In this document: in pieces, positions 11,442 to 45,069 of the stretch
Position numbering within the stretch: position 1 is the first letter of the stretch
Layout of the letters: every line of letters starts with the position of its first letter
NCBI GenBank assembly: GCA_021158105.1
Contig: JAGGVH010000038.1
Location: 11,387 to 75,386 of the forward strand
DNA: 64,000 nt
Direction: 5' to 3'
DNA from: Candidatus Micrarchaeota archaeon
Lineage (GTDB): Archaea; Micrarchaeota; Micrarchaeia; Anstonellales; JAGGVH01
The notes under the pieces: generated by a model
The model's input: only the letters and a program-made list of their open reading frames with translations
Told to the model about the DNA's origin: nothing
The model's database searches: none
Made by a program: the position numbers and the translations under genes

Positions 11442-12513
11442 CATTAAACCTATAATAATGTTTATGCTGATTGTGACCAGTGTTAGCTTTGCAAGTTTTT
11501 GGGATTTATTCTTCTTCCCTATAAACAATTGGATGTTAGTGTCAACCATTGCAGTGTTATTATCAGGAGTGCTCTTAGCACTCACATACATGGTCGCACA
11601 ACTTATGAACAACCCTTATATGACAGCAGCAGTCAAGAATGAGCTTGTGCAATGGGCGATAACATCTTTCATTGTCATGGCGTTTGTTATAATACTTCCG
11701 TCCTTGCTGATGATAGTTGCTTCAGGAAGTTTATCTTTTGGACAGGAGTATACTCCACCAACTGGGTTAAGTGGTGAAGAAGTTGGACCGTCAGGTGTAC
11801 TTGTAACATATGTCCAATACGCTGCAGTAAACATAATCAATCAGACAACCGATAACCTCAAAAAATTAGCCAACAGTCTTGACCGTAGGATTCAAGAGGT
11901 CAGTGAACAATCTGCGATGACAGGAATATGCAACTTTTGGCAGGTAGGGTTTTCAATGAGTTTCTGTGGTGCGCTCGGTGCATTGCAAGGCCCGTTGACC
12001 AACGGGTTTAATGTTGTCAACATGGGAATCGCAGAACTTGAAATGTTAAAGGTGCTGGTTGTGATGGGTGGCAACATTGGACTGCTTATCCTGTTCCCTG
12101 CAGGCATAATCCTGCGAACATTTTCAATGACGCGCAAAACTGGCGGGATATTGATTGCATTGGGTTTGGCGCTCGGGATAATCTTACCATTGAGCGTAAT
12201 ATTCTTAAGGTTTACAGTTGACCAATACTATGCACATTACGGTGGGACTAGAATGTATCATGTCCCATATTTTTATGAACATGATGATGACACATGCGAC
12301 GAATTCTCTACAAACTATGACAAACACATGAAGGTTCCCATATATAGATATACTGATGAAGGTTTTCTGCTTAATGTGGCAGAACCGTTCATCTTAGAAT
12401 CTGTAATAATAACACTGGGCTCATTGTTTTTCACATTAACATTCATTACTTCAATGGGTGCACTGTTTGGTATGCCTGTTGACGTATCAGGACTTGTGAG
12501 GTTAGTGCAATGA
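11398..12513 (+). CDS. Family member A4 (likely start ATG 11410 after GGTGGTGA)
   Basis: NNPYMTAAVKNELVQW. Core FPAGIILRTFSMTRKTGGILIALGLALGIILPL. C-terminal LFGMPVDVSGLVRLV. Confidence 0.65.
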   Translation: MVVIMKSLGLKRSSNIKPIIMFMLIVTSVSFASFWDLFFFPINNWMLVSTIAVLLSGVLLALTYMVAQLMNNPYMTAAVKNELVQWAITSFIVMAFVIILPSLLMIVASGSLSFGQEYTPPTGLSGEEVGPSGVLVTYVQYAAVNIINQTTDNLKKLANSLDRRIQEVSEQSAMTGICNFWQVGFSMSFCGALGALQGPLTNGFNVVNMGIAELEMLKVLVVMGGNIGLLILFPAGIILRTFSMTRKTGGILIALGLALGIILPLSVIFLRFTVDQYYAHYGGTRMYHVPYFYEHDDDTCDEFSTNYDKHMKVPIYRYTDEGFLLNVAEPFILESVIITLGSLFFTLTFITSMGALFGMPVDVSGLVRLVQ

Positions 12514-13646
12514 AAAGGGTTATGATATTATTATTGATGATAAACATAACAAATGCAACATTCTGTGAAGTGCCAGAGGCAAACTCATGGCTGTTACCAG
12601 TGTTCATTGCATTATTCATTGGACTTTTGTTGTCAATCATTGGATACTTTGTAAGCTTATTCTTAAACTCTCCAAAAATGGCGGCATGGGCAAAGGTTGA
12701 AGTCAGTCATCTGGGTACTGCAGCGTTTGTTGCAATATTAATATATGGTGTGATGACATTTTCATGTGATAATAATGCAACACTGGTCTTAGGCGCGTCG
12801 TTCTGGCCCACACCATATAACGAATCGATAACTCCTCAAAACTTCTTTAATGCATCAGCAGACTACTTTGACGGAGTAGCAAATACATCTTATAAAGCAA
12901 TAAAAATGATGAGGTATAACTTAGCAGTGGCTTATGTTCGCGCGTCAATCAGCGCGTTCGGTTCACACCCGCACAGTGGTGGAGCATACGGAATAATACA
13001 ATTGTTGGGTGGGCCGTCAACGTCATGGTCAAAGTTCCCTGATGCTTATGTCCAGGTTTCAATGTTTCAGATGGTGCTGCGCACTGCAACTGTTGCATTC
13101 TTTAACATATTGTTCTTGAAAGCAGTGTTTTCATACATATCAACAGGCGTGTTAACAGTAATGCTGCCAGCAGGGATAGTACTCTATGCAATCCCGTTGA
13201 CAAAAAACATTGGTGGTGCACTCATAGCATTAGCAGTCGGCCTGTTTGTGTTCTATCCTGCAATGTTTGCAATATTAGACATTTATTGGCTACCGTATGT
13301 CCAGAGCGAATGGGAGGTTGCTGACGTTCCAACATTAACAGAAGTTACAGGGTTTACATCCCACATTGCACTCAGTGACTTAGTAAGTGCTGACGTGTGG
13401 GACTGGTGCAAACAACCTGAATATATCTACCCAGTAGGCACATATTCAACATGCGACAGCGGTGATACTGGATTTAATAATTGTTATATAAGAATTTATG
13501 ACTTTATGAGTTATACAGGAATATTGACATTGTCAACAGTATTCTTCCCATACCTTGCAATAATCGTGGCGGGCGCATTGACAAGGGAAGTATCAAAAAT
13601 CATGGGGCAGGAGCTTGACATAACACGACTGGCAACCATGTTGTAG
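12510..13646 (+). CDS. Family member A5
   Basis: LNSPKMAAWAKVEVSH. Core LPAGIVLYAIPLTKNIGGALIALAVGLFVFYPA. C-terminal TREVSKIMGQELD. 4-nt overlap with the upstream gene. Confidence 0.65.
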   Translation: MKRVMILLLMINITNATFCEVPEANSWLLPVFIALFIGLLLSIIGYFVSLFLNSPKMAAWAKVEVSHLGTAAFVAILIYGVMTFSCDNNATLVLGASFWPTPYNESITPQNFFNASADYFDGVANTSYKAIKMMRYNLAVAYVRASISAFGSHPHSGGAYGIIQLLGGPSTSWSKFPDAYVQVSMFQMVLRTATVAFFNILFLKAVFSYISTGVLTVMLPAGIVLYAIPLTKNIGGALIALAVGLFVFYPAMFAILDIYWLPYVQSEWEVADVPTLTEVTGFTSHIALSDLVSADVWDWCKQPEYIYPVGTYSTCDSGDTGFNNCYIRIYDFMSYTGILTLSTVFFPYLAIIVAGALTREVSKIMGQELDITRLATML

Positions 13647-13648
13647 AA

Positions 13649-14746
13649 TTGGGTGGTGAGATGAGGAAGGCATTATTGTTTTTGTTTGTGCTCGGAACAG
13701 TACTGTTTGCACAGGTTGACACAGGCGTAGAATTTAACCAGACAGGTAACGTTTCAACAATGTTGGGGATCAATACACCACCCGGCAGCAGTAGTTATGG
13801 GTGGGCATTGTATGCAATCCTATCATTATTCTTTGTCCTCATGCTTGCTGCGATAGTTTATATGTTAGGAAAATCGTTCAATATACCACAGGCAGAAGCA
13901 TGGGCAAAGGTTGAATTATTAAACATCTTTGGCTCGTTCTTGTTGCTCATTATGATATTAGTAATATTGAACGCAATATATTCAGTGTTTATGGGTTCAA
14001 TGCTGCAAGGCAGTGCATACTGTTTAAAAGAGGGGTATGACGGCAATCATACTATGGACTTTGCAATGTGTAAGGTGCAGGCGCAGATTACTACGCTTGA
14101 CAACCTATGGGCACAGGCTAATGAAGCCAACAAACCACAAGAGGTTGAAGCATCAACATGTTATTCATTATGGGGGCTTACATTATGGTGCGGGGATTGG
14201 TACGGTGACCTGAGGCAGAGGATCGAATCTGCACATTATGTCGGCACAAAAGTTTTAGGGTTGCTGATCCCGTTGCACGCAGAATTTGTCTTGATGCGGT
14301 ACATTGCACAGAACATGTTGGCAGTGTTCTTGCCACTGGGAATCGTACTGCGATGTTTTCCGCCAACCCGTGGACCGGCAGGGTTATTGATTGCGATGAG
14401 TATAGGATTATACTTTGTGTTCCCAGCATTAAACTTTGTCCTTGACCCGTCAACCACACAACCACAGATTGACCAGCCAATAACAAATCAAAAGACTGAT
14501 TATGCATGTTTCCAGGGGTTTAAGAATACCATAACACAAATACAGTATGAAACAGACGTTGAACAGTCACAAATAATGACATATTCCTATGAACAGGCGG
14601 CTGACATAATCGCAGATATTACAATAACAGGACTGTTCTATCCGATGGTGGCGTTTGCGGGTGCTGTGATGTTTATTTATGTCACTGCACCGTTCTTCGG
14701 TGGTGAAGTCATGGACTTCTACAGAGTAGTCAGTAAGATGGTATAG
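13649..14746 (+). CDS. Family member A6 (possible start ATG 13661 after GGGTGGTGAG)
   Basis: FNIPQAEAWAKVELLN. Core LPLGIVLRCFPPTRGPAGLLIAMSIGLYFVFPA. C-terminal FFGGEVMDFYRVV. Confidence 0.65.
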   Translation: MGGEMRKALLFLFVLGTVLFAQVDTGVEFNQTGNVSTMLGINTPPGSSSYGWALYAILSLFFVLMLAAIVYMLGKSFNIPQAEAWAKVELLNIFGSFLLLIMILVILNAIYSVFMGSMLQGSAYCLKEGYDGNHTMDFAMCKVQAQITTLDNLWAQANEANKPQEVEASTCYSLWGLTLWCGDWYGDLRQRIESAHYVGTKVLGLLIPLHAEFVLMRYIAQNMLAVFLPLGIVLRCFPPTRGPAGLLIAMSIGLYFVFPALNFVLDPSTTQPQIDQPITNQKTDYACFQGFKNTITQIQYETDVEQSQIMTYSYEQAADIIADITITGLFYPMVAFAGAVMFIYVTAPFFGGEVMDFYRVVSKMV

Positions 14747-14754: not shown

Positions 14755-17700
14755 ATGAAAAGATTATTGATCATTGGACTGTTGGTTGTTATGTTTTTTA
14801 TATTGGGCTGTGGCAACAAGCCGGCCTATGTGCCGTGCTGTGTTAATGTCAGTGATACAATTACTTGTTATTATGGTGAAGACCATTTCACAGTCGACCC
14901 TGCGAACTGTACAGGTGAAGGAGTTAACATGACATGCAATGCAACAAACATTGACATCAACGGGACATTAATGAATTTTACTAACATGCGCGCATGCAAC
15001 ACTGGCAAGGAAAACCCGTGCGTTCACCACGGGTGTTATGCAATGGTGTGCGGGGAAAGTTATTATGACCCGAGGGAAGACCCGAGCTATTGTATGCTTG
15101 TCAAGAATCAGACTATAACACCTAACACTAATGCACCAACTGGGCTGTACGGGTCAAAGTGTGCATTCTATGAACTTGATGAGATTACACAAAAAAAACT
15201 TAACAAGGGCGCATGGGTCAATTCGTTCCGCGCAGGAGTTGGAGAAAATTATGATGACTTTGAAGAGGCGAAGTGGTATTTCCCAATAACTGACAGGTTG
15301 ACTTATGCAAACCCGTCAGGGTTTGTTGACAGGTATGCAAACTATCTTCCAGGTAGGCAGAGTCCGTGGTTTCATAAGAAGGAAGATTTTGTAAATATCA
15401 TAAAATTCCAAACCGGTGCAGGCCTGTGCGAACTTAACACTTCGCTCAATGCTTATGTGTGCGCGCTTGAACCAGACATAAAAGTTTACTTGGACGCATA
15501 CCATGGTGCAAAAGGCACTGCACAGGCATGGTGCAACCATCTATGTTTTCACATGACACAGAATAATGTGTCAAAGTGCACTGCAGATGTTCCAGAGGGA
15601 TGGCGGGCACCATGGTTAGCTACATCATACATATATTATCCTGGGGGTATTAATGATTATCCTGATTTTAATACTACAATTCCAGAGTATAGCTTCACTT
15701 TACCTTATTTATATAGAAATTATACAGGATTTGAATATGTAGAGTTCTGGGCATGGGGATATGAAAATGAATTGGAGAAGGGAATGGTGAGGACATCTAT
15801 CGGAGTGGGAGATGACGGTGACCCCTACTACGAGAACACCAGCGGTTGGACAGACGGAAAAGGCACACCGCACATCGGCATGCCATTTGAATGCCTTAAA
15901 CACAGCGACTGCATATCAGGACACTGCACGTGGAATGAATATAAACGGTTCTCATGTGTTGATAAAAATACTGGCAAGGAGATTGACTGCGGGATTGAAC
16001 TTGATTATGAAGACAAGCCAGTGTTCAGAACAATTCAGACTTATGTAAGATGGCATAAATATAATGATTGGGAGGACACCGAGGAAGATGTGGTGGGGGG
16101 TTTGGCAAACGGTGATACCACACTAGTTTCACAAGGCTGCCCACCAAGGGAAAGTGGCGGGGGTTGTGATGATATTACAACTGTTGATGTTGATGAACCG
16201 TTAGTTCCTGGTTCTTCAGGAGTTGTAGAATTCAGAACAAATGAAGACCCTCACAATTTAAAATTTATTAAAGCATGTAATATGACAGAAGGAACGGATT
16301 ATGATTATGAAGTGATAAGTTATGACCATAAAGACTGGATTGATGATCCTCATGAAGGAAACATGTGGGCAGAAGTTTGTTATAATTTAATACCTTATTG
16401 GTGGCAATGCAGAGATTGGTTGGATAATGAGTGGGATAGTAGTGATTATTGTAGTTTTCCATCAAATTATGTTGCAGGAAACTGTGATTTAATACCACAT
16501 TCCACCCATATTTGCGATGCAGATACAAATACAGGGGGGTGGTGTAGTTCAACCAGTCCCATATGGGCTGGGTGTCACCCTTACTCAGGTGATTTAACTG
16601 TGTGTAGTATATGTAATAGACATAGTTGTAAAATGTATGCTAACACATATTGTAAAGTCTATGATAATATATTAAATTCATACGTTCCAGGGAGTTATGA
16701 AAAGGAAAGTGGACAATGTGATGGATGGCAGGACGTTCACGGCCGTTTTGCACGGTATAAAGTTATTATCCATTCATTCGGCAGATGTGAAATGGAGAAC
16801 AAAAGTATTGAAGGCGAAGATAAAACAGTTGTAAAGGTTAACAAGTTTGGATGGTGCGAACCTGCAACATTCTTAGGGTTTGTAGTTGATTATTTGCCAC
16901 TTAATGATATTACTATAACAACAAATGGTGGGGATACTCCCTCAATTGAAAATGAAGATGCAGAAAAAGTAACAGATTATTTTGACAAGATTGCAAATTA
17001 CCAAAAGAATAATTTGATACCTGTCTTATTCTTAGAAGATGTAACAAAAGGATATTCATATTTTCATAATGCTGGGGAGAAATATTTTTCTACACTTTAT
17101 GAAATCCCAGACTATTGGTGTGGTGTGTGGACCAATACTGAATGGGGTTGTGGAAAAAATAATGTACATGTAGCTATGAAAGAAAGTGGATATAATTGGG
17201 GAACATGTAATACTGATTGTGGGAAAGTGAAAGGAACATTTAAATATGAATGCCAACCAACAATGTGGTTTACAAATGAAGTTGACCCATTAAGTTTTGA
17301 AACAGATGATAAACCATTCACATCAGGACATGCAGACAATATATGGGATAATAATCAACACATTTCAACATGGCATAAAAAGTGCACGACTGAACCACAC
17401 CCATTATTTCCAACAACCGGTGCAGCAATTATTGTTGTTGACAGGTTTAAACCCCATGGAAGTGGAAATAGAGATAATATTAACGAATCAATAGAGAGAG
17501 CACGGTTTGTTAAAAAGGAATGCCCATTATGCCTAACTGGTATTTATGTCGGCCAGAAGCACGGTACACAAGAAGGGATAAACAACAGAAAAAAATCTAT
17601 AGACTTATTGTTCAATTACGACCCAACAACAGAGAGGTATGATCATATGGTATCATCAGCATTTGACGTTGTCCTTCTTGAAATGCCTTCAAATGAAGGA

Positions 17701-18639
17701 ATAACTGAAAACAACTTTGCTGAGATGCTCAACGTTTCTAAACATCTTGTCCGCGCATTCAACAAACCATCAATCTGGGTGTTCTCAGAATCAAGCGCGC
17801 CTCCTGACTACGAATACCTGTTTGCTCACCAGCGCGAGCTGACAGATTCAGGAGTTATAGGGATAATCCACCTGCCATGGAAAAAGAATGGTGGGAGCAG
17901 CATTTACATGAACAAACCTGACAAAGGCACAACGTTCTGCTCATTCCAGAAAGGTGCCAATAAACTGATAAGGGTCAAGGTTGACTCAAATTATATGAAA
18001 GTTACAGCAATGAACAACACAGGATGCGAATGCCAACCGTGTGAACCAACAGAAATCTCAGCAGGCGTGTGCAATCCGATATGCGCTGACGGAAAATACT
18101 GTGACGGTTACACACCGGGCGCAGACGTCAAATGCTCAAGCGGCGGGGTGTGCGCACGAATGCAGAACTGCACACCGTGCACCAACATGACACAGTATTT
18201 GAGAGAACATGATGTTCCAGACCCGCACAACCCAGTTCATCATGGCCCGATAAACAATGTCAAGTATAACTGTTCAATACTCACGCCAAACGGTTCAGTA
18301 GTTGAAGGACCGAAAGGCAACTTTGACAATCTTTCAATACTATGGCCCGACGTGATTGCTTCACTACCGGATAGTTTTAGGTGTTGTGTTGTTGAGCCGC
18401 AGACACGGTCTCCTGTAACATTTATAAAGCAAAGTTACTCATCAACTGATAGCGAACTTGACATCTGGAACAGAAAAGCTGACGACGCAGTTGAATGCGG
18501 CAAACCACCGTCCGGCACAAACTGCACATGGTGCCAGGAGGTGCCGACTTTACCGATTGATAAGGGTGAACTGATATGCAACGTGATAGTGGAAAGGGAA
18601 AGCGGAAACGAAGTAATAGAACATGGAGAAGCATATTAA
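14755..18639 (+). CDS. Giant (1294 aa) Cys-rich secreted protein with lipobox-like signal (ILGCG)
   Basis: N-terminal hydrophobic signal ending LGC. About 90 Cys spread over the whole length and many NxS/T sequons. No TM after the signal. Shine-Dalgarno TAGGTGGTA precedes the ATG. Confidence 0.7.
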   Translation: MKRLLIIGLLVVMFFILGCGNKPAYVPCCVNVSDTITCYYGEDHFTVDPANCTGEGVNMTCNATNIDINGTLMNFTNMRACNTGKENPCVHHGCYAMVCGESYYDPREDPSYCMLVKNQTITPNTNAPTGLYGSKCAFYELDEITQKKLNKGAWVNSFRAGVGENYDDFEEAKWYFPITDRLTYANPSGFVDRYANYLPGRQSPWFHKKEDFVNIIKFQTGAGLCELNTSLNAYVCALEPDIKVYLDAYHGAKGTAQAWCNHLCFHMTQNNVSKCTADVPEGWRAPWLATSYIYYPGGINDYPDFNTTIPEYSFTLPYLYRNYTGFEYVEFWAWGYENELEKGMVRTSIGVGDDGDPYYENTSGWTDGKGTPHIGMPFECLKHSDCISGHCTWNEYKRFSCVDKNTGKEIDCGIELDYEDKPVFRTIQTYVRWHKYNDWEDTEEDVVGGLANGDTTLVSQGCPPRESGGGCDDITTVDVDEPLVPGSSGVVEFRTNEDPHNLKFIKACNMTEGTDYDYEVISYDHKDWIDDPHEGNMWAEVCYNLIPYWWQCRDWLDNEWDSSDYCSFPSNYVAGNCDLIPHSTHICDADTNTGGWCSSTSPIWAGCHPYSGDLTVCSICNRHSCKMYANTYCKVYDNILNSYVPGSYEKESGQCDGWQDVHGRFARYKVIIHSFGRCEMENKSIEGEDKTVVKVNKFGWCEPATFLGFVVDYLPLNDITITTNGGDTPSIENEDAEKVTDYFDKIANYQKNNLIPVLFLEDVTKGYSYFHNAGEKYFSTLYEIPDYWCGVWTNTEWGCGKNNVHVAMKESGYNWGTCNTDCGKVKGTFKYECQPTMWFTNEVDPLSFETDDKPFTSGHADNIWDNNQHISTWHKKCTTEPHPLFPTTGAAIIVVDRFKPHGSGNRDNINESIERARFVKKECPLCLTGIYVGQKHGTQEGINNRKKSIDLLFNYDPTTERYDHMVSSAFDVVLLEMPSNEGITENNFAEMLNVSKHLVRAFNKPSIWVFSESSAPPDYEYLFAHQRELTDSGVIGIIHLPWKKNGGSSIYMNKPDKGTTFCSFQKGANKLIRVKVDSNYMKVTAMNNTGCECQPCEPTEISAGVCNPICADGKYCDGYTPGADVKCSSGGVCARMQNCTPCTNMTQYLREHDVPDPHNPVHHGPINNVKYNCSILTPNGSVVEGPKGNFDNLSILWPDVIASLPDSFRCCVVEPQTRSPVTFIKQSYSSTDSELDIWNRKADDAVECGKPPSGTNCTWCQEVPTLPIDKGELICNVIVERESGNEVIEHGEAY

Positions 18640-21600
18640 TCATATTATTCTTATTGTTACTGGTTAATCTTACGTTTTCCATACCAATAACACCAGAAAA
18701 CGAAAGCCAACGAATGTGTGGCCAGCCCACAGCATTCCAGACAAACTTGTTCCTGTCAGTCAACAGAACAAATGTTACAATCATAGGAAGTGCGGTCAAC
18801 CTTACAAACATCAGTGACAGGATCGCGCTCGACAATAAACCAATTTTTGTCAAGGCGGTATGTTCAGACGGCAGCACACACCTGTCCTTCATACAAACAG
18901 ACCCTGAAGGAACTGCAATTTATGACTTATCATCATTATCATCATGCTCAAACTGCACAATTGTTTATTTTATATTTTGCCCGAACACTGAAAATGATAC
19001 TGTTCTTAGGGATTGCTTAAATGTTAATAATACTGTTACACTGCCAGCATTGGGTGGTTCTGCATTATACACATTAAATTATACCTCAGATGTCAAATCC
19101 TACAGGTATTGCCCGCCAACTTCTGCTGACATGCCAAAAGAGGCGTGCATGTTAATCATGTTAATGTTCGGCATACTGGGCGGGGCAATATATTTGTCAG
19201 GGTCGTCGCCGTTCAGGTTCTTCACTGTCCCGCGGATGCGGATGCCAAAGACACAGATGTATCAGGTTAAACCGCAGAGTATGAGCTTTACGATGATGAG
19301 TGTTTCAAGCATTGCAGGCAAGGCAGTGGGCGGGCTTGTAAAATTGGCAGGGAAAGGACTCAAAAAGTTGGGCGTCGGAAAAAAGGGTGACAAGGCAACA
19401 AAAAAAGAAGCTGCTGCAGACCAACCCGAACAGTATAAACCCAAAACGATCTTTGGTAAAGTTTTACAAAACTATAGTGGGTTTGTTGGCATGGTGAACA
19501 TGGCAACAAAAGGAACAATCGGAAAGATTGATATCACTGGAGGTGGGAGAAGCAAAGTAGACAGCAACAGGTTAGCTGCACTTGGCATGGCAGCATTTGC
19601 ACAGGAAGGTGGGATAAACTTTGGCGGAAAAGCATTTAGTGGTGATGTTACAAAGATAAGTGAAAAAATCATTGCAATGATTATTGCAATGATTAAAAAA
19701 ATTCTTGGCATGCTTTTAATGGCACTCTTACCACGACTGTTGGCGTTTTGTCCATTGACAGCAGGAATTGCGGGTTCATTGGAAGGCACCAGTGATTTTC
19801 TGGAAGGTGTGTCATCTTTTTTCAGGTCAGTCGGACTGGGAAAAGCAGCAGATTTTATTGACAAAAACATGGTGAGTAAGATAAGGGGGATATTTAGGTT
19901 GTGGGGCTTGCTTGATAAGTTAGAAGATTTATGCTTAGGCATTGAAACAAGAAAAGGTATGAAATGGTTGGAAGAAATTGCAAAAGGAGTGGAACTTCCT
20001 GAGGAAATTCAAAAGAAACTCAAAAATGGCGAAGCCCTCAGTGACAATGACCTTGAAGAAATAAACAAAAAAATAGAAGACAAAGGATATAAAATGGATA
20101 TGAAGGATGGTTATTTCATTATTCAACACAGAAACTCAAAAGGGAAATGGAAAACTGTCAAACTAGCAAAAGAAGACTTTTCACGTATGCTCAGGATTAT
20201 GCCTGATGACATGCGTGATGCATTACAACCTTTAATAGAATCAATGATCGTAATGTTGGACAAAGGTGCATTCTTAGACAAGTTTGATGCTAAAAATATT
20301 GGTAAGATGAAAGAATGGATTGACAACTTTTCAGAAAAGTATAACAATGCAAAAACAGATAAAAATAAAGAAAAAGTGCTCAATGAATTCAAAAAGAAAT
20401 TGAGAGCACTGGGACTGAACGCAGATGACCCAACTTCAATGGGATTTGAATTTGCAGAGCTCGCAGTAAAAGCAGTAATGGGCGAGAAGGACCAAAACGG
20501 AAAACAGATAACCAGTGATACTGTAATAAATGCGATTGAAAATGCTAAGCAATCCTTAAACCTGAACACTCCCATTGTTGCCATATTATTTGGAAATGCA
20601 TTGAATGCTGCACAAGAAGTAAAAGAATTAGGACTGGGCCATCAGTATTCGGCAGCAGAAGTTGAGAGGAAGATTGATAATGCAAAAGAAGCGATTGAAA
20701 AACTGAAAAAGGAGATTGAACTGCAGACAGACATAATTGACAAAATCAAGAACTCAGATGATATGATAGATTTTGCCATTGCATTAAGAATTAGGGAAAA
20801 GATTGAAGAATTAGAGAGTAAGAAAGAGGCACATACACTATCTGATGATGAAAAGAAAGAATTGGAAAAATATGAGAAGATGTTGGCAGGCAATAAATTC
20901 AAAGATTATTCCATTGATGACTTAAAAGGTATGGAAAAAATTGTCAAAGAAAAGTTCTCTGATGGGTTGCAGCTTGCAGACAGTATTGCAGGTGCAATCA
21001 TTGACAAAAACATTGGTGTAAAACCTGAATTCTCAGACAGTGAGATAACACAGCTGAAAAACAAGCTAAGCAGTATGACAAAAGAAATACGTAAAAATGA
21101 TGTTTTTGAATATGGACTTACTGATAAAAGGGAAGAAATTAATATGTATAAAAAAGACATAAAAGATGCTGAGAAGTTTGCGAAGGGAAGAAGAAATGGT
21201 GAAAAGTTTGCTAATACATTTAAAATTGAAAGCCCAACCGCTCCACCAATCACTGTCAACTTTGATGAATACATTGACAAATTGAAGAAAGACAAGGCTG
21301 AAGCACTTGCCACTGGCGATAGTGCAAAAGCACAAGAGATAGAAACTAAAATAAAAAATGCATATTCAGAAAAGGCCAAACAGTTGCAAGACAGGTATGC
21401 AAAACTTCTCAGTAAACTGGGAAAAGCAGAAGGTGCAAAGCAGCTTAAGATTTGTGGTGAACTTTCAGCACTTGAAGAGGCAATGTACAGTCTTCAGCAA
21501 GACGGAACAACAAACTATTACGAAAACAAGATTGAAGAACTTAAACAGCAAATGATTGATTCACAAAGTAAAGGAGATATAGGAACATATCTGCAAACAC

Positions 21601-23645
21601 AGATAGATATCAGAAAATTAGAAGATGAAATGGACAAAACATTGGGCGGACCAAATAACTATGTTGACATGCAAAAATATAGGATAAACGCGATAACTAC
21701 AACTATCGGGCAATATGATGCATCACTGTTTGGCGTTTCAATCATAAGAGCATTGGACACCAGCAGCAAGGAAAGGTCGCAGTTGTTAGAACAAAAAGGC
21801 AGACTGGTTCAGAACAAGACATTGATTAAACAACAACTTGATAATATTAAACAGCTAAAACAAGTAATGTATGACACACCTTTTGCCCAGGAAAAGATAA
21901 AACAACTTGACATGGAAGAAAAAGAACTAACCAAACAATTGAAAGACATCGATTCAAAAATAGATAAGATTGATATCAAAATAAGTGCAATTGACAGCAA
22001 AGGCTCCACTGCAGCAGTTGCATGGGCAAACTCGTCATACATGCTGAGTACATATGAACTGACCAAGCATAGTCCAATGGAGGACTATTCAAAAGAGGAA
22101 AAAATTAATGTGTTGAAAACTGGCGCGTTCACTGACACATTTAATTCATACTCTCAGATTTACAACCAAACAGCAAACGACCCGTTGCTTTCTCAAACTT
22201 ATGCAAATTATATAGGATATATGACAACTGAAAACTTTATTGATTATTCTGAAAGGTTAAAAGATTCTGCAAAATGGGTTAATGAACAAACGCAAAAGAT
22301 TGAAAAAGTAAACAAAGAATTTAACACTGAAAAAGAAGACATCCTGAAGTCAGCACAAGAGATTGCCAGCAAACAAAAAGAAGTCATAACAACAACCGCA
22401 AACATACCTTGGGGCAGGATTGAACAGCAAAGAGAAACAATAGAAAACTTAAAAACACAAAGGGACGAACTGGCACAACAGAACAAGGAGATAAGAGAAA
22501 GGTTGGATACAATACAAACAGAAAAAGAAAAATTGGTTTTCATGATCGCCACATCCCCCCAACCCCAAAAAATAAGAGACAAGATTGATAAACTTAAAAA
22601 GGAAGAGCAAGACCTGCAAAAGCAGTGGGAAGACAACGATTCAGAGATTGACAGGATTGATATTGAGATAAACGCAATAAACACCAAGATAAATGATGCA
22701 ACAGAACCTCTCAATAAACTAGAAAAAGAAATAAGAAATGCGCAAACTGATTTAAGCAAGAAAGTAACAACAATTGATGTTGAAGTTAATGAAAGTTTGT
22801 TTGAAAATGAGGTATGGTATGCAACTGAAATAGTAGAAGCTGTTGAATATAAATCAAAAAGTGAAGAAAAAATATTTAGTAATATAATCACTCCTGGTGT
22901 TACTACACAGTACAGAAAAATTGGTGATGAGATAAGAAAGATAAGGGACAACTTTGAAAGTGTGAAAGAAAATGGCGGCGGGGCAATCAGTGCAGATATT
23001 TCAAGCAAACTTGCAACTACGATAATAACTGCTGACAAGGCATACTCACAAACAATATCTGCAATATATCTAAATGAACATCCAACAGGTAGCATGTTGG
23101 AAGTATTAGGTATAAAGAATGTTAGGAGTAAAGAGAAATGGTTTAAGAACTTTAATAAGAGTGCAAAGAGGATCAGTTTGGGCATTAAAAACACTTTGCA
23201 GAACATACTTGACAGTAATGTTGCCAGCAACACAATCAATTTAGAAGAAGGATTGGCTCAGAATAAAGAATTGAACAAAAAATTAGAGGACGCTCAGGCT
23301 CATGGTGATGAAACAGAAGTTGAGCAACTTGAAACAAAAATAAAAGAAGTCGACGCTCAAAACCAGTCAATACTAACAGAATTGAACAGCACCCTTAGAG
23401 GAGAAGGTTCCCAGCTGGAGCGGTTGACAAACATAAACATAGAATCAAAGATACTTGTAAACAGCACAAAGTCGCCAGCATCATCATGGAGAGAATGGAA
23501 TGAAATAAGGGAAGGGTGGATCAGGGGTGCACCAAGATTAGATACTGAAACAGTTAAACGTAAGAACGAAACTACTGATGAACATGATAAACCTGTAGCA
23601 AAAGGAAAAAATGGAAAACAGTCTTCATCTTCTGACAAGGGGTGA
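18576..23645 (+). CDS. Giant (1689 aa) signal-anchored protein: glycosylated ectodomain, TM, Gly/Lys-rich linker and ~1300-aa E/K-rich coiled coil
   Basis: N-terminal RTWRSILIILFLLLLVNLTF signal anchor. NxT/S-rich ~170-aa ectodomain. TM ACMLIMLMFGILGGAIYL. Long heptad-like E/K region with internal repeats (IDKIDIKISAIDSK / IDRIDIEINAINTK). The start overlaps the previous ORF by 64 nt. Confidence 0.65.
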   Translation: MQRDSGKGKRKRSNRTWRSILIILFLLLLVNLTFSIPITPENESQRMCGQPTAFQTNLFLSVNRTNVTIIGSAVNLTNISDRIALDNKPIFVKAVCSDGSTHLSFIQTDPEGTAIYDLSSLSSCSNCTIVYFIFCPNTENDTVLRDCLNVNNTVTLPALGGSALYTLNYTSDVKSYRYCPPTSADMPKEACMLIMLMFGILGGAIYLSGSSPFRFFTVPRMRMPKTQMYQVKPQSMSFTMMSVSSIAGKAVGGLVKLAGKGLKKLGVGKKGDKATKKEAAADQPEQYKPKTIFGKVLQNYSGFVGMVNMATKGTIGKIDITGGGRSKVDSNRLAALGMAAFAQEGGINFGGKAFSGDVTKISEKIIAMIIAMIKKILGMLLMALLPRLLAFCPLTAGIAGSLEGTSDFLEGVSSFFRSVGLGKAADFIDKNMVSKIRGIFRLWGLLDKLEDLCLGIETRKGMKWLEEIAKGVELPEEIQKKLKNGEALSDNDLEEINKKIEDKGYKMDMKDGYFIIQHRNSKGKWKTVKLAKEDFSRMLRIMPDDMRDALQPLIESMIVMLDKGAFLDKFDAKNIGKMKEWIDNFSEKYNNAKTDKNKEKVLNEFKKKLRALGLNADDPTSMGFEFAELAVKAVMGEKDQNGKQITSDTVINAIENAKQSLNLNTPIVAILFGNALNAAQEVKELGLGHQYSAAEVERKIDNAKEAIEKLKKEIELQTDIIDKIKNSDDMIDFAIALRIREKIEELESKKEAHTLSDDEKKELEKYEKMLAGNKFKDYSIDDLKGMEKIVKEKFSDGLQLADSIAGAIIDKNIGVKPEFSDSEITQLKNKLSSMTKEIRKNDVFEYGLTDKREEINMYKKDIKDAEKFAKGRRNGEKFANTFKIESPTAPPITVNFDEYIDKLKKDKAEALATGDSAKAQEIETKIKNAYSEKAKQLQDRYAKLLSKLGKAEGAKQLKICGELSALEEAMYSLQQDGTTNYYENKIEELKQQMIDSQSKGDIGTYLQTQIDIRKLEDEMDKTLGGPNNYVDMQKYRINAITTTIGQYDASLFGVSIIRALDTSSKERSQLLEQKGRLVQNKTLIKQQLDNIKQLKQVMYDTPFAQEKIKQLDMEEKELTKQLKDIDSKIDKIDIKISAIDSKGSTAAVAWANSSYMLSTYELTKHSPMEDYSKEEKINVLKTGAFTDTFNSYSQIYNQTANDPLLSQTYANYIGYMTTENFIDYSERLKDSAKWVNEQTQKIEKVNKEFNTEKEDILKSAQEIASKQKEVITTTANIPWGRIEQQRETIENLKTQRDELAQQNKEIRERLDTIQTEKEKLVFMIATSPQPQKIRDKIDKLKKEEQDLQKQWEDNDSEIDRIDIEINAINTKINDATEPLNKLEKEIRNAQTDLSKKVTTIDVEVNESLFENEVWYATEIVEAVEYKSKSEEKIFSNIITPGVTTQYRKIGDEIRKIRDNFESVKENGGGAISADISSKLATTIITADKAYSQTISAIYLNEHPTGSMLEVLGIKNVRSKEKWFKNFNKSAKRISLGIKNTLQNILDSNVASNTINLEEGLAQNKELNKKLEDAQAHGDETEVEQLETKIKEVDAQNQSILTELNSTLRGEGSQLERLTNINIESKILVNSTKSPASSWREWNEIREGWIRGAPRLDTETVKRKNETTDEHDKPVAKGKNGKQSSSSDKG

Positions 23646-23649: not shown

Positions 23650-24450
23650 ATGATTTCAAACAAGATGGTAGTATATGCGCTGTTGCTCATTGCAATAGCT
23701 ACTTTATTGTTATCATTCTACATTGGCGGCGCAATACCTTTCCTGTTCCCGTTGAACCTGATTTTGGTCCTGATAGCGCTTGCACTGTGGAAATTCGGTT
23801 ATCTGTTCACCCCAATATTGGGTGGAGTGATAAGGTCAGACATTCAGATTGGGAAATATGAAATATTGCCAAGCTTAGACGGGATATACCGAAAAGCAAA
23901 CGGGCAATATTATGTTTCAAAATTCTTGACAGCCAACATTTATGAGTCAACAACTGAAAAGACTGAAAGCCAGAAAGGGTTGATGATGGAATATTTTGAA
24001 CGTGCGATAACATCGTTTAAATATCCTGTCAAGATCTCAATGCTTGTTAGAAACATTGACCTTACAAAAAAGCTTGAAGAACTGCGCGCTGAACGTAGCA
24101 GGCTTGAAACACGGAAGGGACACCTAGCAAATGATAACCCACAAAAGAACGCTCCACAGATCTCAATCATTGACAGGAAGATTGCCATGGTTAACAAGGA
24201 ACTTGAAAGACTGACGACTGGCGATAAACCAATGGAAGTTGTATCGCTGATAATGATAACTGCAAAAGGCGCAGGCATTGATGAAGCTAAGATGAAAGCT
24301 GAAGCGCACGCAAAAGAAGTTCAAGCAGTAGTAGGCAACGCATTAGGTGTGGAGGTGTTGCCGTTGAGGGGTAATGAAATGTTGAAAGCGTTTGACTTTC
24401 AATTTTTTATCCCGAGCGACAGTGGAGAGTTTACTGACATGCTTGAATAA
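23650..24450 (+). CDS. VirB3-like small membrane protein (2 N-terminal TM + cytoplasmic domain), immediately upstream of the VirB4-like ATPase
   Basis: Two adjacent hydrophobic helices at aa 7-60, then a charged coiled region. Shine-Dalgarno AGGGGTGA. The position and topology match VirB3/CedA1-type partners of VirB4-family ATPases. Confidence 0.5.
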   Translation: MISNKMVVYALLLIAIATLLLSFYIGGAIPFLFPLNLILVLIALALWKFGYLFTPILGGVIRSDIQIGKYEILPSLDGIYRKANGQYYVSKFLTANIYESTTEKTESQKGLMMEYFERAITSFKYPVKISMLVRNIDLTKKLEELRAERSRLETRKGHLANDNPQKNAPQISIIDRKIAMVNKELERLTTGDKPMEVVSLIMITAKGAGIDEAKMKAEAHAKEVQAVVGNALGVEVLPLRGNEMLKAFDFQFFIPSDSGEFTDMLE

Positions 24451-24483
24451 CCACAAACATTGTAGACAAGACAAGGTGGAAAC

Positions 24484-26016
24484 ATGTATCTCAAACCTAA
24501 TAAGATTATAAGTTCAAAACTTGCAATGAGGCGGATTTGGGTCCATCCCCCTGAACCTCCAAAGAGTTTTCTGCTCAGTGATCCCGCAAAGGGTGTATAT
24601 CTAACAAAAACTAAACTGTTCAATGTCCCATTCTTCTGGGATTTTAGGAAACTTATAAACCCCCACATCGCAGTCGTTGGAGTTACTGGTGCTGGCAAGT
24701 CATACCTAGTAAAAACATTCCTGACCCGTGCAAACCTGACATGGAACACTAATGCAATGATAATTGACTGGGTCGGAGAATACAATGACTGGGTTAAACA
24801 GACCGGCGGTCATACTTTGCATTTTGGCAGGGGCGAATACCTTAATTTATTAGACCTGGCAGGCATGAAACCAATACAAAGAGTTAAACAGATCATCAGC
24901 GCATTAGAGATATTGACGGACATTGGAAAGTATCCTGTCCAGAAAAGGTTTACAGAAGATGCACTGATGAACACATACAAAAATCACGGGTTTGAACTTA
25001 CAAAAAAATCTAATAATAAACCGCCAGTGTTGTCAGATGTTATAAAAGAACTTGAGAAGATTAAAAACAAACAGAAAACTGAAAAGAAAAAGGATGACGT
25101 TCAAGAATGCATCCACAGGTTAAAACCCATGACAATAAAAGGTAATGATTACTTTGCACACCATTCAACCATCAACCTTGACAAGATCATAAAGATGGGG
25201 CTTGTCAACATCGACCTTCACGAACTACCATCAGAAGAGATGAGGAGTTTGGCAGGGCTAACCATCCTCCAGATGTTAAAAGAAAAGATGAGGTTTGAGG
25301 GTTGGTCGCCTGAGAAGGGATTAAAACTGTTCATTGTTGCTGACGAGGCATGGAAGATTGCAAAAGATGACAGGAGCGACCTGATAACCATTGTCAGAGA
25401 AGGAAGGAAGTACCAGTTCGGACTGATCGTGGCCAGTCAAAATCCTACTGACATTCACAAGGATATATTTTCAAACGTTGGCACATTGTTCATAATGAGG
25501 TTAATGTTTAAGGAATTTAAGGAGCATGTGCGGTCATCATTACACTATTCTGATTACATTGCAGAACAGATTGACAAGCTTGGTGTGGGCGAATCGATTG
25601 TATACTTGGGTTATGCACAAAAAACTGATTTTAGCAATGTTGTAATATTAAACAAGATTGATGGTGAAGAGCCTTTAATAAATTATACATTAAAAGGTGA
25701 TAAGATGGAAGTTACATTTATGAAAGAGAAATTTAAAAGACAATTAAAAGAGTTTGGACTGAACACGCAACAGATTAAAAATGTATGTGCAATGTTTGAA
25801 GAGCATGACAATGTAATCCATGTGCTACAACTGATTGAACAGCTTGAGAAGTATGGTTTCGGTCCGTCGTTAATCATAACATTCATGAGGGAATTGGGGC
25901 TAAAAGAAGGTGAACTGATCCCGTTATTCTCAAGATTGCAAAGGAAAAAGATGGGTATAGAGTCTGACAAACTTGTACGGTTGGTGGTTGAAGATGAAGA
26001 AACTAAAGAAAAGTAA
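24484..26016 (+). CDS. VirB4/TrbE/CedB-like (HerA-FtsK superfamily, DUF87) secretion/transfer ATPase
   Basis: Walker A VVGVTGAGKSYLVK. Walker B KLFIVADEAWK. The REGRKYQFGLIVASQNP (R-finger/SQ) region is typical of VirB4/HerA ATPases. Shine-Dalgarno AAGGTGGA. Confidence 0.75.
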   Translation: MYLKPNKIISSKLAMRRIWVHPPEPPKSFLLSDPAKGVYLTKTKLFNVPFFWDFRKLINPHIAVVGVTGAGKSYLVKTFLTRANLTWNTNAMIIDWVGEYNDWVKQTGGHTLHFGRGEYLNLLDLAGMKPIQRVKQIISALEILTDIGKYPVQKRFTEDALMNTYKNHGFELTKKSNNKPPVLSDVIKELEKIKNKQKTEKKKDDVQECIHRLKPMTIKGNDYFAHHSTINLDKIIKMGLVNIDLHELPSEEMRSLAGLTILQMLKEKMRFEGWSPEKGLKLFIVADEAWKIAKDDRSDLITIVREGRKYQFGLIVASQNPTDIHKDIFSNVGTLFIMRLMFKEFKEHVRSSLHYSDYIAEQIDKLGVGESIVYLGYAQKTDFSNVVILNKIDGEEPLINYTLKGDKMEVTFMKEKFKRQLKEFGLNTQQIKNVCAMFEEHDNVIHVLQLIEQLEKYGFGPSLIITFMRELGLKEGELIPLFSRLQRKKMGIESDKLVRLVVEDEETKEK

Positions 26017-26761
26017 AGATATTAAGAAAGTTAAAGCATCTAAGAATACTGAAAAAAACACAGTGAAAGAAAATGTCATAACACTCACCGGCAAACGTAT
26101 TAAGAGCATTAATGAACTTAAGAATGCAATTGAAAAATTAGGGTTCAGAGAAATTGACATCAAAAAGAATGTAATGACGGTTAAAGTTGTTGAGAGGGAA
26201 ACCATCAAAGGCGCTCCCTACCTTTACATATCAATCACATTCGAACCTGACAAAATGGTTGTAGAATACAATGTTCCAAAAGATTACAGTAAAAATCTTA
26301 GGGCTTTTGAAGTCGCAAGCTTGCTGCTCAGGATATTGCTCCTAACAAAAGCATATGACATTAAAAGCGAAAAGATATACAAAATGATATTTGACGTGTT
26401 TGACACTGTCAACGAGATATTAACAAAGGATTATGTCAAACTTAAGAGCAGATATGACAACCTTGCCGAGGAGCACAGAAAACTTAAAATGCAATTTGAT
26501 GAAACTGAAAAGATAAACAGAAAGATCAACAAGACGATGTTAGAAATTGAAAAACGAAACCAAGAATTTGAAGAAAGGATTAAAAAGCTTGAAAGTGTAA
26601 GTAATGAAACACTTGAAGAGATGTTGATAGACTGGTTAAAAACAAACAGTGGCAGGATTAATGTTTATGAGTTCTCAAAAGTCAACAACATTTCGTCCCC
26701 CAGAGTTGAAGAAGGGTTGGATATATTAATGAAGAAAGGTGTCATTGAAAAGGTTGAATAA
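25973..26761 (+). CDS. Coiled-coil protein with C-terminal winged-helix-like domain; start uncertain (overlaps the ATPase 3' end)
   Basis: Lys-rich N-terminus, central coiled coil and a C-terminal region (SPRVEEGLDILMKKGVIEKVE) resembling a wHTH. Confidence 0.4.
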   Translation: MYGWWLKMKKLKKSKDIKKVKASKNTEKNTVKENVITLTGKRIKSINELKNAIEKLGFREIDIKKNVMTVKVVERETIKGAPYLYISITFEPDKMVVEYNVPKDYSKNLRAFEVASLLLRILLLTKAYDIKSEKIYKMIFDVFDTVNEILTKDYVKLKSRYDNLAEEHRKLKMQFDETEKINRKINKTMLEIEKRNQEFEERIKKLESVSNETLEEMLIDWLKTNSGRINVYEFSKVNNISSPRVEEGLDILMKKGVIEKVE

Positions 26762-28501: not shown

Positions 28502-29113
28502 TTGCCAACAAAAGAAGACGTCTTAGACAAGATAAAAACATGTGACAACGTTTACCCACCAAGAGAGGATACATTTTTGATGCTTAAAGCTATTGACAAA
28601 TTAAAAAATAAAATCATGGGTAATGAGAAAATAATTGATATGTGTTGTGGCACGGGAATACTGGGGATTTATGCATCACAATATGTCAAATCAGTAACTT
28701 TTGTTGACATATACAAAAACGCAATAGAATGTGCAATTGAAAATGCAAACTTGTTCAACACCACTGGGAAATTTATACAGTCAGATTTGTTTGATAAAAT
28801 AAACAGAAATGTAAAGTTTGACATTATACTGTTCAACCCCCCATACCTGCCAACAGACGAAGATACAAAAATAAACGGCCCGTTCAATATAAACTTGGAC
28901 GGCGGGCCAGACGGCAGGAGAGTGATTGACAAGTTTTTAGAGCAAGCGCCACAATATTTGTCTGAAAAAGGCAAAATATTAATGTTAGACAGTTCATTGG
29001 ACAACACAGAGAAAACAATTGATAAACTGGCAATGCATGGGTTTAAAATAGAGATAATACTATCACAAAGTTTTTTCTTTGAAAAACTCAATGTGATTCT
29101 GGCAGAAAGGTGA
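28502..29113 (+). CDS. HemK/Mtq2-family N5-glutamine (amino) methyltransferase, NPPY motif
   Basis: Motif I DMCCGTGILGIYA and the catalytic ILFNPPYLP motif. TTG start implied by the ORF track. Confidence 0.55.
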   Translation: MPTKEDVLDKIKTCDNVYPPREDTFLMLKAIDKLKNKIMGNEKIIDMCCGTGILGIYASQYVKSVTFVDIYKNAIECAIENANLFNTTGKFIQSDLFDKINRNVKFDIILFNPPYLPTDEDTKINGPFNINLDGGPDGRRVIDKFLEQAPQYLSEKGKILMLDSSLDNTEKTIDKLAMHGFKIEIILSQSFFFEKLNVILAER

Positions 29114-29119
29114 GGCAAC

Positions 29120-29860
29120 ATGGAATATTTACTAGTCGAACCCGAATTTCCCATCAACCTTGGGTCAGTTGCACGAGTGCTAATGAATTTTGGGATTAGG
29201 CATCTTCATATTGTAAACCCGAAGTGTAAGTTGGATGATAAAGAAGTCAAGATGTTTGCTAAGAAAGCCTATTCTTTAGTCCAGAACGCTAAGGTTTATG
29301 ACACAATGGACGATGCAATCAATAAAATCAAACCTAACCTGGTCATTGGAACTACAGGTGTGCATGACAGGTTCAGAAAAGGGATAATGAGAAAAAATAT
29401 AGCTCTCAAGGATGCGAAGGCAAAACTGGAACGTAAAGGCAAATTCTTAATAGTATTCGGAAGGGAAGGCACAGGACTGAACAGGCATGAGAGCGGGCTG
29501 TGCAATTTTTTTATCACTGTTCCAACTTCTAACAAATATCCTGTCATGAACCTTTCCCATGCCGTTGCAGTTGTAGGGTATGAATTAGAATATGAAAACG
29601 TTGCCAAGAAGAAAAATAAGGTTAGAAACATTGACAAGGTAGGCAACATTAAATACATCTATAATATGTTCAACTCATTTGTTGACGTATTAGCCGGAAA
29701 GACAAGACTTAGAAAAAGCAATAAGATCAAACAATCTTTTAAAAATGTAATATCGCGTGGCATGCCCACCCCAACAGAAGCTAATTCCCTGATTGCAGTG
29801 TTCAACAGGGCAAAAACAGTCATAGGAAAAGAATTTAAAGACAACCCGGGAAAGAAATAA
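29120..29860 (+). CDS. SPOUT (TrmH/SpoU-family) RNA 2'-O-ribose methyltransferase
   Basis: SPOUT motif 1 NLGSVARVLMNFG, motif 2 LIVFGREGTGL and motif 3 PVMNLSHAVAVVGYEL. Confidence 0.7.
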   Translation: MEYLLVEPEFPINLGSVARVLMNFGIRHLHIVNPKCKLDDKEVKMFAKKAYSLVQNAKVYDTMDDAINKIKPNLVIGTTGVHDRFRKGIMRKNIALKDAKAKLERKGKFLIVFGREGTGLNRHESGLCNFFITVPTSNKYPVMNLSHAVAVVGYELEYENVAKKKNKVRNIDKVGNIKYIYNMFNSFVDVLAGKTRLRKSNKIKQSFKNVISRGMPTPTEANSLIAVFNRAKTVIGKEFKDNPGKK

Positions 29861-29861
29861 C

Positions 29862-30215
29862 ATGTTATCATACCTTTCAACAGAACATAAGATAAGAGTA
29901 ATGGAGAAGGTATTAAGCAAACTTGCAAATGAAGACAAAGAAATTGAGACATTAGATGCCAAGAAACTTGAATCGCGGCTCAGTAAATACAATAAAATGT
30001 TGAAGTTGTACGAAACAAGGATTTCACAACATTGTAAAAAGATTGTGAAAGTCTCGCCACCCAGCAGGGTAAACAGACATGTTGCATCAGTTGTTGCATA
30101 TTCTGAAATAAGAAAACGGTTATTAAGAATGATCAGAAAAACCAAAAGGATGATAAAATTAAGAGAATCAGGAAAACCAGTCAACCGAAGAGGGATAGCA
30201 AAATATCTAAAATGA
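29862..30215 (+). CDS. Hypothetical basic coiled protein
   Basis: 117-aa Lys/Arg-rich ORF immediately after the SpoU gene stop. Confidence 0.35.
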   Translation: MLSYLSTEHKIRVMEKVLSKLANEDKEIETLDAKKLESRLSKYNKMLKLYETRISQHCKKIVKVSPPSRVNRHVASVVAYSEIRKRLLRMIRKTKRMIKLRESGKPVNRRGIAKYLK

Positions 30216-30218
30216 GGT

Positions 30219-30246: not shown

Positions 30247-30260
30247 AAATCTATCATGAG

Positions 30261-45065: not shown

Positions 45066-45069
45066 AAAA

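Follow-up and report, generated by a model that had tools for sequence, protein, structure and literature searches.

Micrarchaeota live as obligate episymbionts that connect to a host and feed from it, and their genomes are very small. What proteins of almost two thousand amino acids may serve in such an organism is the question raised by a 64,000-nucleotide stretch of Candidatus Micrarchaeota DNA (GenBank assembly GCA_021158105.1, contig JAGGVH010000038.1, positions 11,387 to 75,386), referred to below as the window. It codes for two giant proteins, A (18576-23645, + strand, 1689 amino acids) and B (37931-43690, - strand, 1918 or 1919 amino acids), both predicted to be type I bitopic membrane proteins. 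To judge from their sequences, the two are diverged paralogs within a giant type I superfamily specific to Micrarchaeota. Each lies in a conserved gene module, A-type or B-type, that also codes for polytopic membrane paralogs and for Cys-rich proteins with a lipobox. The chances appear about equal, for and against, that the two giants act as type I scaffold subunits in an envelope complex restricted to Micrarchaeota. No description of the giants or of the module was found in the searchable literature.

Full-length homologs of A and B that retain their architecture are found at 30-45% identity in several metagenome-assembled genomes (MAGs): P0002 and P0003 for A, and P0005, P0006 and a protein of locus L003 for B. 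These intact homologs show that the two open reading frames (ORFs) are neither pseudogenes nor assembly artefacts, the case that the reading made earlier from the sequence alone had named as one that would refute it. B is also 100% identical to a hypothetical protein at NCBI from a Candidatus Micrarchaeota MAG. It has 1919 residues when started at a GTG and 1918 when started at the ATG one codon downstream, the form called by NCBI. A Shine-Dalgarno-like GGTGA lies ahead of the ATG in both genes, as part of GGGTGA in A and of AGGTGA in B. The JGI/ENA gene call for A (P0001, 1643 amino acids) begins at Met47 and omits the signal sequence (18576-18713, +); the longer form is preferred because a hydrophobic amino terminus is kept in 36 of 38 relatives and a ribosome binding site precedes the first ATG.

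Relatives of the giants are not readily retrieved. Searches of A and B in Pfam, NCBIfam, PHROGs, PADLOC and PDB sequences gave nothing, or matches of coil composition only. A word-indexed protein search returned only two non-self homologs for each, even with a profile, a low yield probably due to saturation by low-complexity words. Patterns derived from B found one Micrarchaeota MAG in a scan of GTDB genomes, those derived from A gave no match in the same scan, and a metagenome scan with a narrower alignment yielded 13 loci.

The amino terminus of A features a basic n-region followed by the hydrophobic core of a signal sequence, recognised by hydropathy (residues 15-41; 18618-18698, +). The predicted ectodomain (residues 42-188; 18699-19139, +) has seven conserved cysteines (C48, C96, C124, C127, C135, C147 and C179) and nine N-glycosylation sequons. 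It is followed by a single strong transmembrane (TM) helix (residues 189-211; 19140-19208, +; ACMLIMLMFGILGGAIYLSGSSP) with the family motif C-x19-G-x-x-P. The juxtamembrane region (residues 212-330; 19209-19565, +) begins with the conserved basic stretch FRFF..MRMPKT..SFTMMSV and continues as a Gly/Lys-rich linker in which GKAVGGLVKLAGKGLKKLGVGKKGDK occupies residues 248-273. In P0003 (locus L005) this linker is expanded over residues ~245-420 by tandem repeats GKGAKGVAKAAKYxGxKTGxTWAGxQxG, and it therefore behaves as a length-variable, low-complexity spacer. A further hydrophobic stretch at residues 363-399 of A does not keep its hydrophobicity in P0003. The predicted cytoplasmic region (residues 400-1650; 19773-23525, +) is poor in Cys, contains 32% Asp, Glu, Lys and Arg, and is almost all-helical with no fold match. 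It encloses a zone of long helices (46-104 amino acids) with a heptad signal, found by AlphaFold2 and a heptad scan (residues 1028-1433; 21657-22874, +). The family alignment shows a conserved motif, SPASSWREW...GW(I/V)RG, close to the carboxyl terminus (residues 1633-1651; 23472-23528, +). Conservation is concentrated at the other end of the protein, identity between A and P0002 being 59% over residues 1-685 and 32%, with many indels, over residues 490-1689.

B has the same overall plan. Its hydrophobic signal (residues 1-27) precedes a sequon-enriched ectodomain (residues 28-162) and a single strong TM segment (residues 163-187), followed by the basic juxtamembrane sequence KFKRFRAVRKR. The ectodomain and TM segment together (residues 28-187; 43130-43609, -) contain five sequons, three Cys, C167 at the start of the TM segment, and the TM helix CLLFSLLVGVLAASMFYFGANP. 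The signal, ectodomain, single TM segment and basic or Gly/Lys-rich juxtamembrane stretch proposed previously for both giants are thus all present in A and B. The most conserved domain of B is a non-coiled one near the carboxyl terminus (residues 1555-1810; 38261-39028, -), which has the motifs LTLKLDPNNEQR, FLPEQW and NDxYRDxY and no Pfam match. It is followed by a conserved Gly-rich hydrophobic stretch (residues 1811-1845; 38156-38260, -) whose Kyte-Doolittle maximum of 1.35 is below the TM threshold and which may associate with the membrane. The last residues (1893-1919; 37934-38014, -) form a lineage-specific, Zn-ribbon-like Cys/His tail, C-x3-H...C-x-C. The tail, VCKHGH...HCWCGEKLE in B, is kept in P0005 and lost in P0006 and in the L003 homolog; AlphaFold2 places two short strands in it with low confidence. 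The tail noted by the sequence-only reading does exist, yet it does not define the family, as two of four B-family proteins have it.

The superfamily was delimited with a HMMER profile built from residues 1-685 of A and two relatives and searched against 1.84 billion cluster representatives. Of the 141 proteins retrieved at E<=1e-3, 37 reach E<=1e-10, and most are 900-2600 amino acids long. Nearly all 141 match through an amino-terminal segment (profile positions ~14-270), the N-module, which is mostly found at or near the protein start; in a few of them, P0012 included, it is preceded by a longer ectodomain. All members that carry a source name are hypothetical proteins of Micrarchaeota/Micrarchaeia, including Bilamarchaeaceae. 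A matches its own subfamily with E=0. The alignment shares the pattern C..YCP(F)C...C(GF)..CL ... YCPP ... C-(TM)-G..Y.(S/T)G.(N/S)P(F/L), after which comes a basic stretch.

Architecture, alignment and Pfam domains were inspected in 38 members. All 38 have the same architecture, with a TM segment near residue 145-270 and a large part poor in Cys and sequons, and no Pfam domain was found in any of them. The ectodomain has ~120-220 residues with 6-11 Cys in 37 members; the exception is P0012 (locus L007, 2469 amino acids), whose ectodomain of ~700 residues and 67 Cys looks as if a Cys-rich surface domain had been fused to the N-module. This apparent fusion hints that the ectodomain of the giants and the Cys-rich proteins encoded beside them function together. 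B is placed in the same superfamily as A through the TM and juxtamembrane part and through intermediate sequences only: hhalign of the A- and B-family alignments aligns this segment alone, B matches P0012 in the same segment by BLAST (E 3.7e-6), and the L003 homolog of B matches the hidden Markov model of the N-module (4.7e-7). The N-module is the most constrained part of these proteins and the tail has diverged, which therefore points to a constrained interaction at or outside the membrane.

The distribution of sequons and cysteines around the TM segment bears on the orientation of the giants. The ectodomain of A has 6.1 NxS/T sequons per 100 residues and seven Cys, against 0.8 per 100 and three Cys in the remaining ~1480 residues. 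Across the 38 members, sequon density is 0.6-6.1 per 100 residues outside versus 0.0-1.2 inside, where 0-5 Cys are found. The 30 residues following the TM segment have a net charge of +3 to +7, and Gly makes up 9-26% (typically 15-20%) of the next 150. A topology with the amino terminus outside and the carboxyl terminus inside is inferred from these features. The proposal of a small glycosylated ectodomain outside and a giant part inside is in this way backed, by sequon and Cys partitioning and by positive-inside charge, in all 38 members. In A and B the signal would be either cleaved or kept as an anchor, and the ectodomain is of disulfide type and probably N-glycosylated. The opposite arrangement would make the helical part an extracellular stalk that spans the pseudoperiplasm or reaches the host, in the manner of SlaB or tetrabrachion. 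Long coiled coils make up the stalks of archaeal S-layers, and a pseudoperiplasm of 20-25 nm is described for Micrarchaeota (bioRxiv 10.1101/2021.04.28.441871). This reversed orientation is very improbable: an amino-terminal signal and one TM segment place the carboxyl terminus inside, the stretch directly after the TM segment is strongly basic, and sequons are 3-20 times scarcer in the large part of most of the 38 members, where Cys is nearly absent although the secreted neighbours are all Cys-rich.

The large cytoplasmic part had been described as more than 1000 residues of coiled coil in both giants. An AlphaFold2 model of residues 490-1689 of A, made with a 3-sequence alignment, has a mean predicted local distance difference test score (pLDDT) of 59 and ~90% helix, the helices being mostly 20-45 residues long. 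A crude heptad scan compared with locally shuffled sequence flags 274 residues of A (16%) and 253 of B (13%). Long helices and heptads in the AlphaFold2 segment and the heptad scan cover only ~270-400 residues of A, so that the genuine coiled coil is perhaps ~300-400 residues within a huge, modelled helical part. The enormous alpha-helical region therefore stands for A, at moderate confidence, but neither as a coiled coil nor for B. B contains more aromatic residues, numerous conserved motifs without heptad character and few flagged heptads, which speaks against a mainly coiled-coil protein; the AlphaFold2 model of its carboxyl-terminal 740 residues (pLDDT 37) is unusable.

The coil zone of A accounts for its resemblance to other long proteins. 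SMC/Rad50 profiles match only residues 1060-1465 of A, with 17-26 bits versus cut-offs of 300-1000 (20-26 bits where the cut-offs are 567-1000). SMC reaches 26 bits, and the same zone gives similarly weak matches to LmuB (25 bits) and to a tape-measure PHROG (24 bits). Neither Pfam nor NCBIfam detects an ATPase head domain (Walker A/B, signature motif) in the giants, and no hinge or Zn-hook of SMC/Rad50 type was detected, the long helices spanning only ~400 residues. Homology to SMC/Rad50, named at the outset as a finding that could overturn the idea of membrane-tied struts, was thus not found. A relationship to SMC/Rad50 was rejected, the matches being compositional and far below cut-offs with no ATPase head. 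Identification as a phage tape-measure protein was likewise rejected, on a single 24-bit PHROG match in the coil zone and no viral neighbours. A role of the giants as rulers, also suggested previously, loses ground: the 38 aligned members span 682-2469 residues, and a precise ruler function of the tail is unlikely because the cytoplasmic part is the least conserved and carries many indels.

Foldseek found no match of the A model in the PDB at E below 0.1; the top, non-significant ones are spectrin, catenin, vinculin and BAR-type helical proteins. Such folds are what would be expected if the giants were membrane-anchored cytoskeletal or membrane-organising proteins, comparable to EzrA with its spectrin-like repeats or to the HMW core of the Mycoplasma attachment organelle; they would then act with little dependence on the neighbouring genes, for example in cell shape, division or a polar attachment structure. 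The all-helical cytoplasmic part, with its many helices of 20-45 residues and a long-helix zone, and the presence of SepF and Cdc6 genes nearby in related loci agree with this. It is nonetheless quite improbable, as no fold or sequence match is significant, the ectodomain and TM segment are conserved rather than the cytoplasmic region, indicating that an extracellular or membrane partner is constrained, and the giants are tightly and conservedly linked to genes for membrane and surface proteins.

This linkage is seen in full around A, which is the eighth gene of a packed block on one strand (6354-26761, +) whose genes overlap or are separated by gaps of at most 33 nucleotides. The block opens with six polytopic paralogs, P1 to P6 (423, 316, 968, 371, 378 and 365 amino acids; 6354-14746, +), that share the motif LPxGxxLRxFxxTRxxGG. 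Next comes a 1294-residue lipobox protein with 5% Cys (14755-18639, +), encoded just upstream of A with a 64-nucleotide overlap. The B-type block (35374-52913), the second of the two modules in the window, has its own six polytopic paralogs (433, 317, 434, 465, 373 and 385 amino acids; 45604-52913, -), which correspond one-to-one and in the same order to those of locus L002. It also codes for a 177-residue Cys-rich protein with a lipobox-like signal (45070-45603, -) and, just downstream of B, for an 845-residue Cys-rich lipobox protein (35374-37911, -) whose homologs follow the B homologs in L002, L003 and L004. Divergent from B is the gene of a 389-residue coiled-coil protein with one carboxyl-terminal hydrophobic segment (residues 296-321; 43896-45065, +); L003 has a weak homolog in the corresponding place, and genes in L002 and L004 are similarly positioned.

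The twelve polytopic proteins, arranged in two arrays of six, belong to one unannotated family with a carboxyl-terminal LGGE and large outward loops. All those of A-type and five of the six of B-type match no Pfam family (E<=0.01, E<=0.001), and the sixth B-type protein has only a sub-threshold hit to MscS_TM (18.8 bits). The two proteins scanned against NCBIfam gave no match at E<=0.1, and the family profile found no PDB sequence at E<=10. Arrays with one-to-one orthologs kept in order would fit a hetero-oligomer better than recent duplication. P3 (968 residues, 8535-11441, +) is distinguished by 7.4% Cys and by large Cys-rich insertions that repeat C-x-D-G-x-D-(D/N)-(D/N)-G-D-x-x-x-D-C-x-D-P-D-C. 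P3 has no Pfam match at E<=0.01; its repeats resemble the Ca-binding Cys repeats of thrombospondin type 3 or of MopE type. The third gene is also Cys-rich and enlarged (~640-810 amino acids) in the arrays of L008, L011 and L017.

The Cys-rich proteins have a lipobox-like sequence [LFIM]x[GA]C at residues 15-31 in 10 of 11 cases (ILGC, FFGC, LSGC, FSGC and others), the eleventh, from L004, having the near-miss SVGC. Those of the window read ILGC (14755-18639), LNGC (35374-37911) and FTGC (45070-45603), and its two large ones have in common a C..HGCYA.xC motif near the amino terminus. The conserved lipobox leads to the prediction that the Cys-rich proteins are lipid-anchored at the outer face; their assignment as an S-layer protein was rejected.

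The same neighbourhood recurs beyond the window. In 13 of 14 loci with enough flanking sequence the giant adjoins 4-6 polytopic paralogs, a Cys-rich lipobox protein of 1000-1600 residues, or both; distant A-like giants with this neighbourhood are found in L006-L012, L015, L017, L018, L020 and L021. The module is ordered P1-P2-P3 (with its Cys-rich insert)-P4-P5-P6, Cys-rich giant, giant, in co-directional or divergent arrangement. Eight further loci (L001, L006-L009, L011, L020 and L021) have an A-like giant with a homolog of the Cys-rich protein next to it. The order in L002 is six polytopic genes, B homolog and Cys-rich protein; in L001 it is Cys-rich protein, A homolog, a 268-residue protein, ATPase, a second 268-residue protein and PheRS-beta. 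These conserved neighbours, the polytopic paralogs and the Cys-rich lipobox protein, strengthen the idea of an envelope machine served by the giants.

In the window, L001, L006 and L009 alike, the module is followed by genes for MTS and SpoU methylases and next for Cdc6. Such conserved housekeeping neighbours show that the module is chromosomal and vertically inherited rather than mobile. A mobile element was rejected on this synteny; no integrase or viral genes were recognised nearby, and tblastn of the A amino terminus and N-module against 72,556 plasmids gave no match. One further reading held that A and B are artefacts, pseudogenes, cargo of a mobile element or of a virus (tape-measure-like), or SMC/Rad50 relatives. 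Its support was the weak tape-measure, LmuB and SMC matches, which are confined to the coil zone; together with the intact orthologs and the housekeeping synteny, this leaves it effectively refuted. A Cdc6/Orc1 gene, with its MTS and SpoU methylase neighbours, lies a few kilobases from the module (28502-32566, +, in the window; 14.1-17.2 kb in L006 and L009). The gene order suggests that the module may sit near a replication origin.

Downstream of A the block continues with a lineage-specific addition (23650-26761, +), found in the same order in L001: a 266-residue protein with two TM segments, a 510-residue HerA/CedB/VirB4-like ATPase and a 262-residue coiled-coil protein. The 510-residue protein is an ATPase of the HerA/FtsK superfamily (DUF87/AAA_10). 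Its best NCBIfam match is CedB (1.6e-24, 86 bits versus a cut-off of 700), followed by the VirB4-like CD1110 (3e-19), CedD and VirB4 of a Mycoplasma integrative and conjugative element, all covering only the carboxyl-terminal ATPase part of the models. HerA models (PADLOC, 1.8e-25) and HerA structures in the PDB score equally well. The protein lacks the amino-terminal part of HerA and VirB4, and plasmids hold only DUF87/VirB4-like genes with 20-27% identity to it. It could be that the 266-residue protein encoded upstream supplies the missing membrane-proximal part. The 262-residue protein ends in a sub-threshold winged helix-turn-helix (wHTH; TrmB, E 0.003), and by sequence the trio resembles a membrane-tethered translocase in split form, accompanied by a putative DNA-binding protein.

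The ATPase is one ground for considering that the module may be a highly diverged type IV secretion system (T4SS) or Ced-like apparatus for translocation of DNA or protein. The polytopic paralogs would then be analogues of VirB6 or CedA, the 266- and 510-residue pair a split VirB3-VirB4/CedB, and the giant a scaffold or coupling subunit on the cytoplasmic side. CedB and VirB4-like models as best NCBIfam matches, the two-TM protein encoded just upstream and the wHTH matches of the 262-residue neighbour are in keeping with this proposal, as are the tandem VirB6 paralogs with giant extensions described in Rickettsiales (PMC7648143, PMC2653234) and the T4SS that episymbiotic Patescibacteria are described to keep near the replication origin (PMC12102498), the Micrarchaeota module lying near Cdc6. 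It is still unlikely. HerA models equal those of CedB and VirB4 in score. VirD4, relaxase, pilin (VirB2/CedA1) or VirB8-like genes were recognised in neither cluster with Pfam and NCBIfam, the small ORFs not having been searched exhaustively, and the N-module of A is unmatched in the plasmids. The reading is weak chiefly because the ATPase trio is next to the giant in just two cases, the window and the closely related L001, being absent beside it in L005-L021, and because similarity of the polytopic family to VirB6/TrbL, CedA or a PDB sequence could not be detected.

The envelope complex proposed at the outset would be assembled from all products of a module. Its membrane core would consist of the polytopic proteins, and its exposed part of the Cys-rich lipoprotein. 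The conserved ectodomain and TM segment of the giant would dock into the core or the outer-face part, and the long cytoplasmic region would extend as a scaffold or tether into a very small cell. In the present lineage the A-type module would, with weaker support, be co-transcribed with the ATPase and its putative DNA-binding partner; the association of this module with the ATPase operon raises the possibility that the complex supports energised transfer of macromolecules at the host contact site. Involvement in host contact or transport is plausible. Several observations weigh against the proposal, among them the restricted adjacency of the ATPase and the solitary character of the polytopic family, as given above. 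The A-like giant of L016, the one exception among the 14 loci, has no module within 2.9 kb upstream. The cytoplasmic parts can barely be aligned across the superfamily, which makes a single shared cytoplasmic function uncertain. The predicted topology rests on hydropathy, charge and composition, the AlphaFold2 models are of moderate (A) or poor (B) confidence, and adjacency is the only link among the products of a module known from genes alone.

Cryo-electron tomography of strain ARM-1 is reported to show a 21-nm barrel-shaped docking platform in the envelope and cytoplasmic protein cages of more than 100 nm (bioRxiv 10.1101/2024.05.20.594898). A more daring form of the envelope proposal takes the module for the apparatus of host contact and transfer on the symbiont side, with the barrel-shaped platform and the cages as candidate structures, the helical regions as internal struts and the CedB/HerA-like motor driving uptake of host macromolecules in some lineages. 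It must be considered rather unlikely as a whole.

Two other features of the window lie away from the modules. An archaeal RNase P RNA is found at 59754-60029 (+) with 127 bits and marks the window as archaeal. Downstream of it the amino-terminal third of a 506-residue ORF (60167-61687, +) looks non-coding, and its true start is probably further in.

About 38 kb of the window is occupied by the two copies of the conserved module, ATPase operon included, and no scanned module protein matches a curated family. The unit to be explained, with eight genes in its A-type copy, is unannotated, conserved and duplicated in Micrarchaeota, and it is larger than the pair of giant proteins from which the sequence-only reading started. 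Being unannotated and vertically inherited across the phylum, the module is a testable candidate for the missing machinery of the envelope or of host interaction. The N-module, the polytopic motif and the Cys-rich giant with its lipobox are signatures that can be searched with profiles, so that orthologs can be found in cultivated strains.

Comparison with known systems reveals partial likenesses. SMC/Rad50 and phage tape-measure proteins have long coiled-coil segments that give the weak compositional profile matches, but the giants lack an ATPase head, hinge or Zn-hook and are instead predicted to be inserted in the membrane with an ectodomain. A SlaB-like S-layer stalk is an extracellular coiled coil with a carboxyl-terminal anchor, whereas the TM segment of the giants is near the amino terminus, after signal and ectodomain. 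EzrA and the Mycoplasma protein HMW2 are long helical or coiled-coil cytoplasmic scaffolds tied to the membrane in small or wall-less cells. They differ in that EzrA has no ectodomain and HMW2 no TM segment, while in the giants both are constrained, and there is no match of sequence or fold.

In Rickettsiales, which are likewise host-dependent and have small genomes, the rvh T4SS combines tandem polytopic paralogs with very large proteins. Its giant extension is fused to VirB6, while in Micrarchaeota the giant is a separate protein with a single TM segment and VirB6 homology was not detected. The Ced system and T4SS of monoderm type share with the module a HerA/VirB4/CedB-clade ATPase in the same operon, in the present lineage, and several polytopic membrane proteins, in the context of an obligate symbiont with a reduced genome. 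Here, however, the ATPase neighbour is not conserved, neither the giants nor the polytopic family show sequence similarity to CedA, VirB6 or T4SS parts, and pilin, coupling protein and relaxase were not found in the module. A comparable type I giant or Cys-rich lipoprotein is not known from any T4SS. The giants and their module are rated as lying outside the known kinds of system, with roughly even chances that future structures will expose them as a strongly diverged variant of some known apparatus for secretion or translocation. If that variant were a T4SS or Ced-like system, it would extend the parallel with Patescibacteria, whose T4SS is essential for epibiotic growth.

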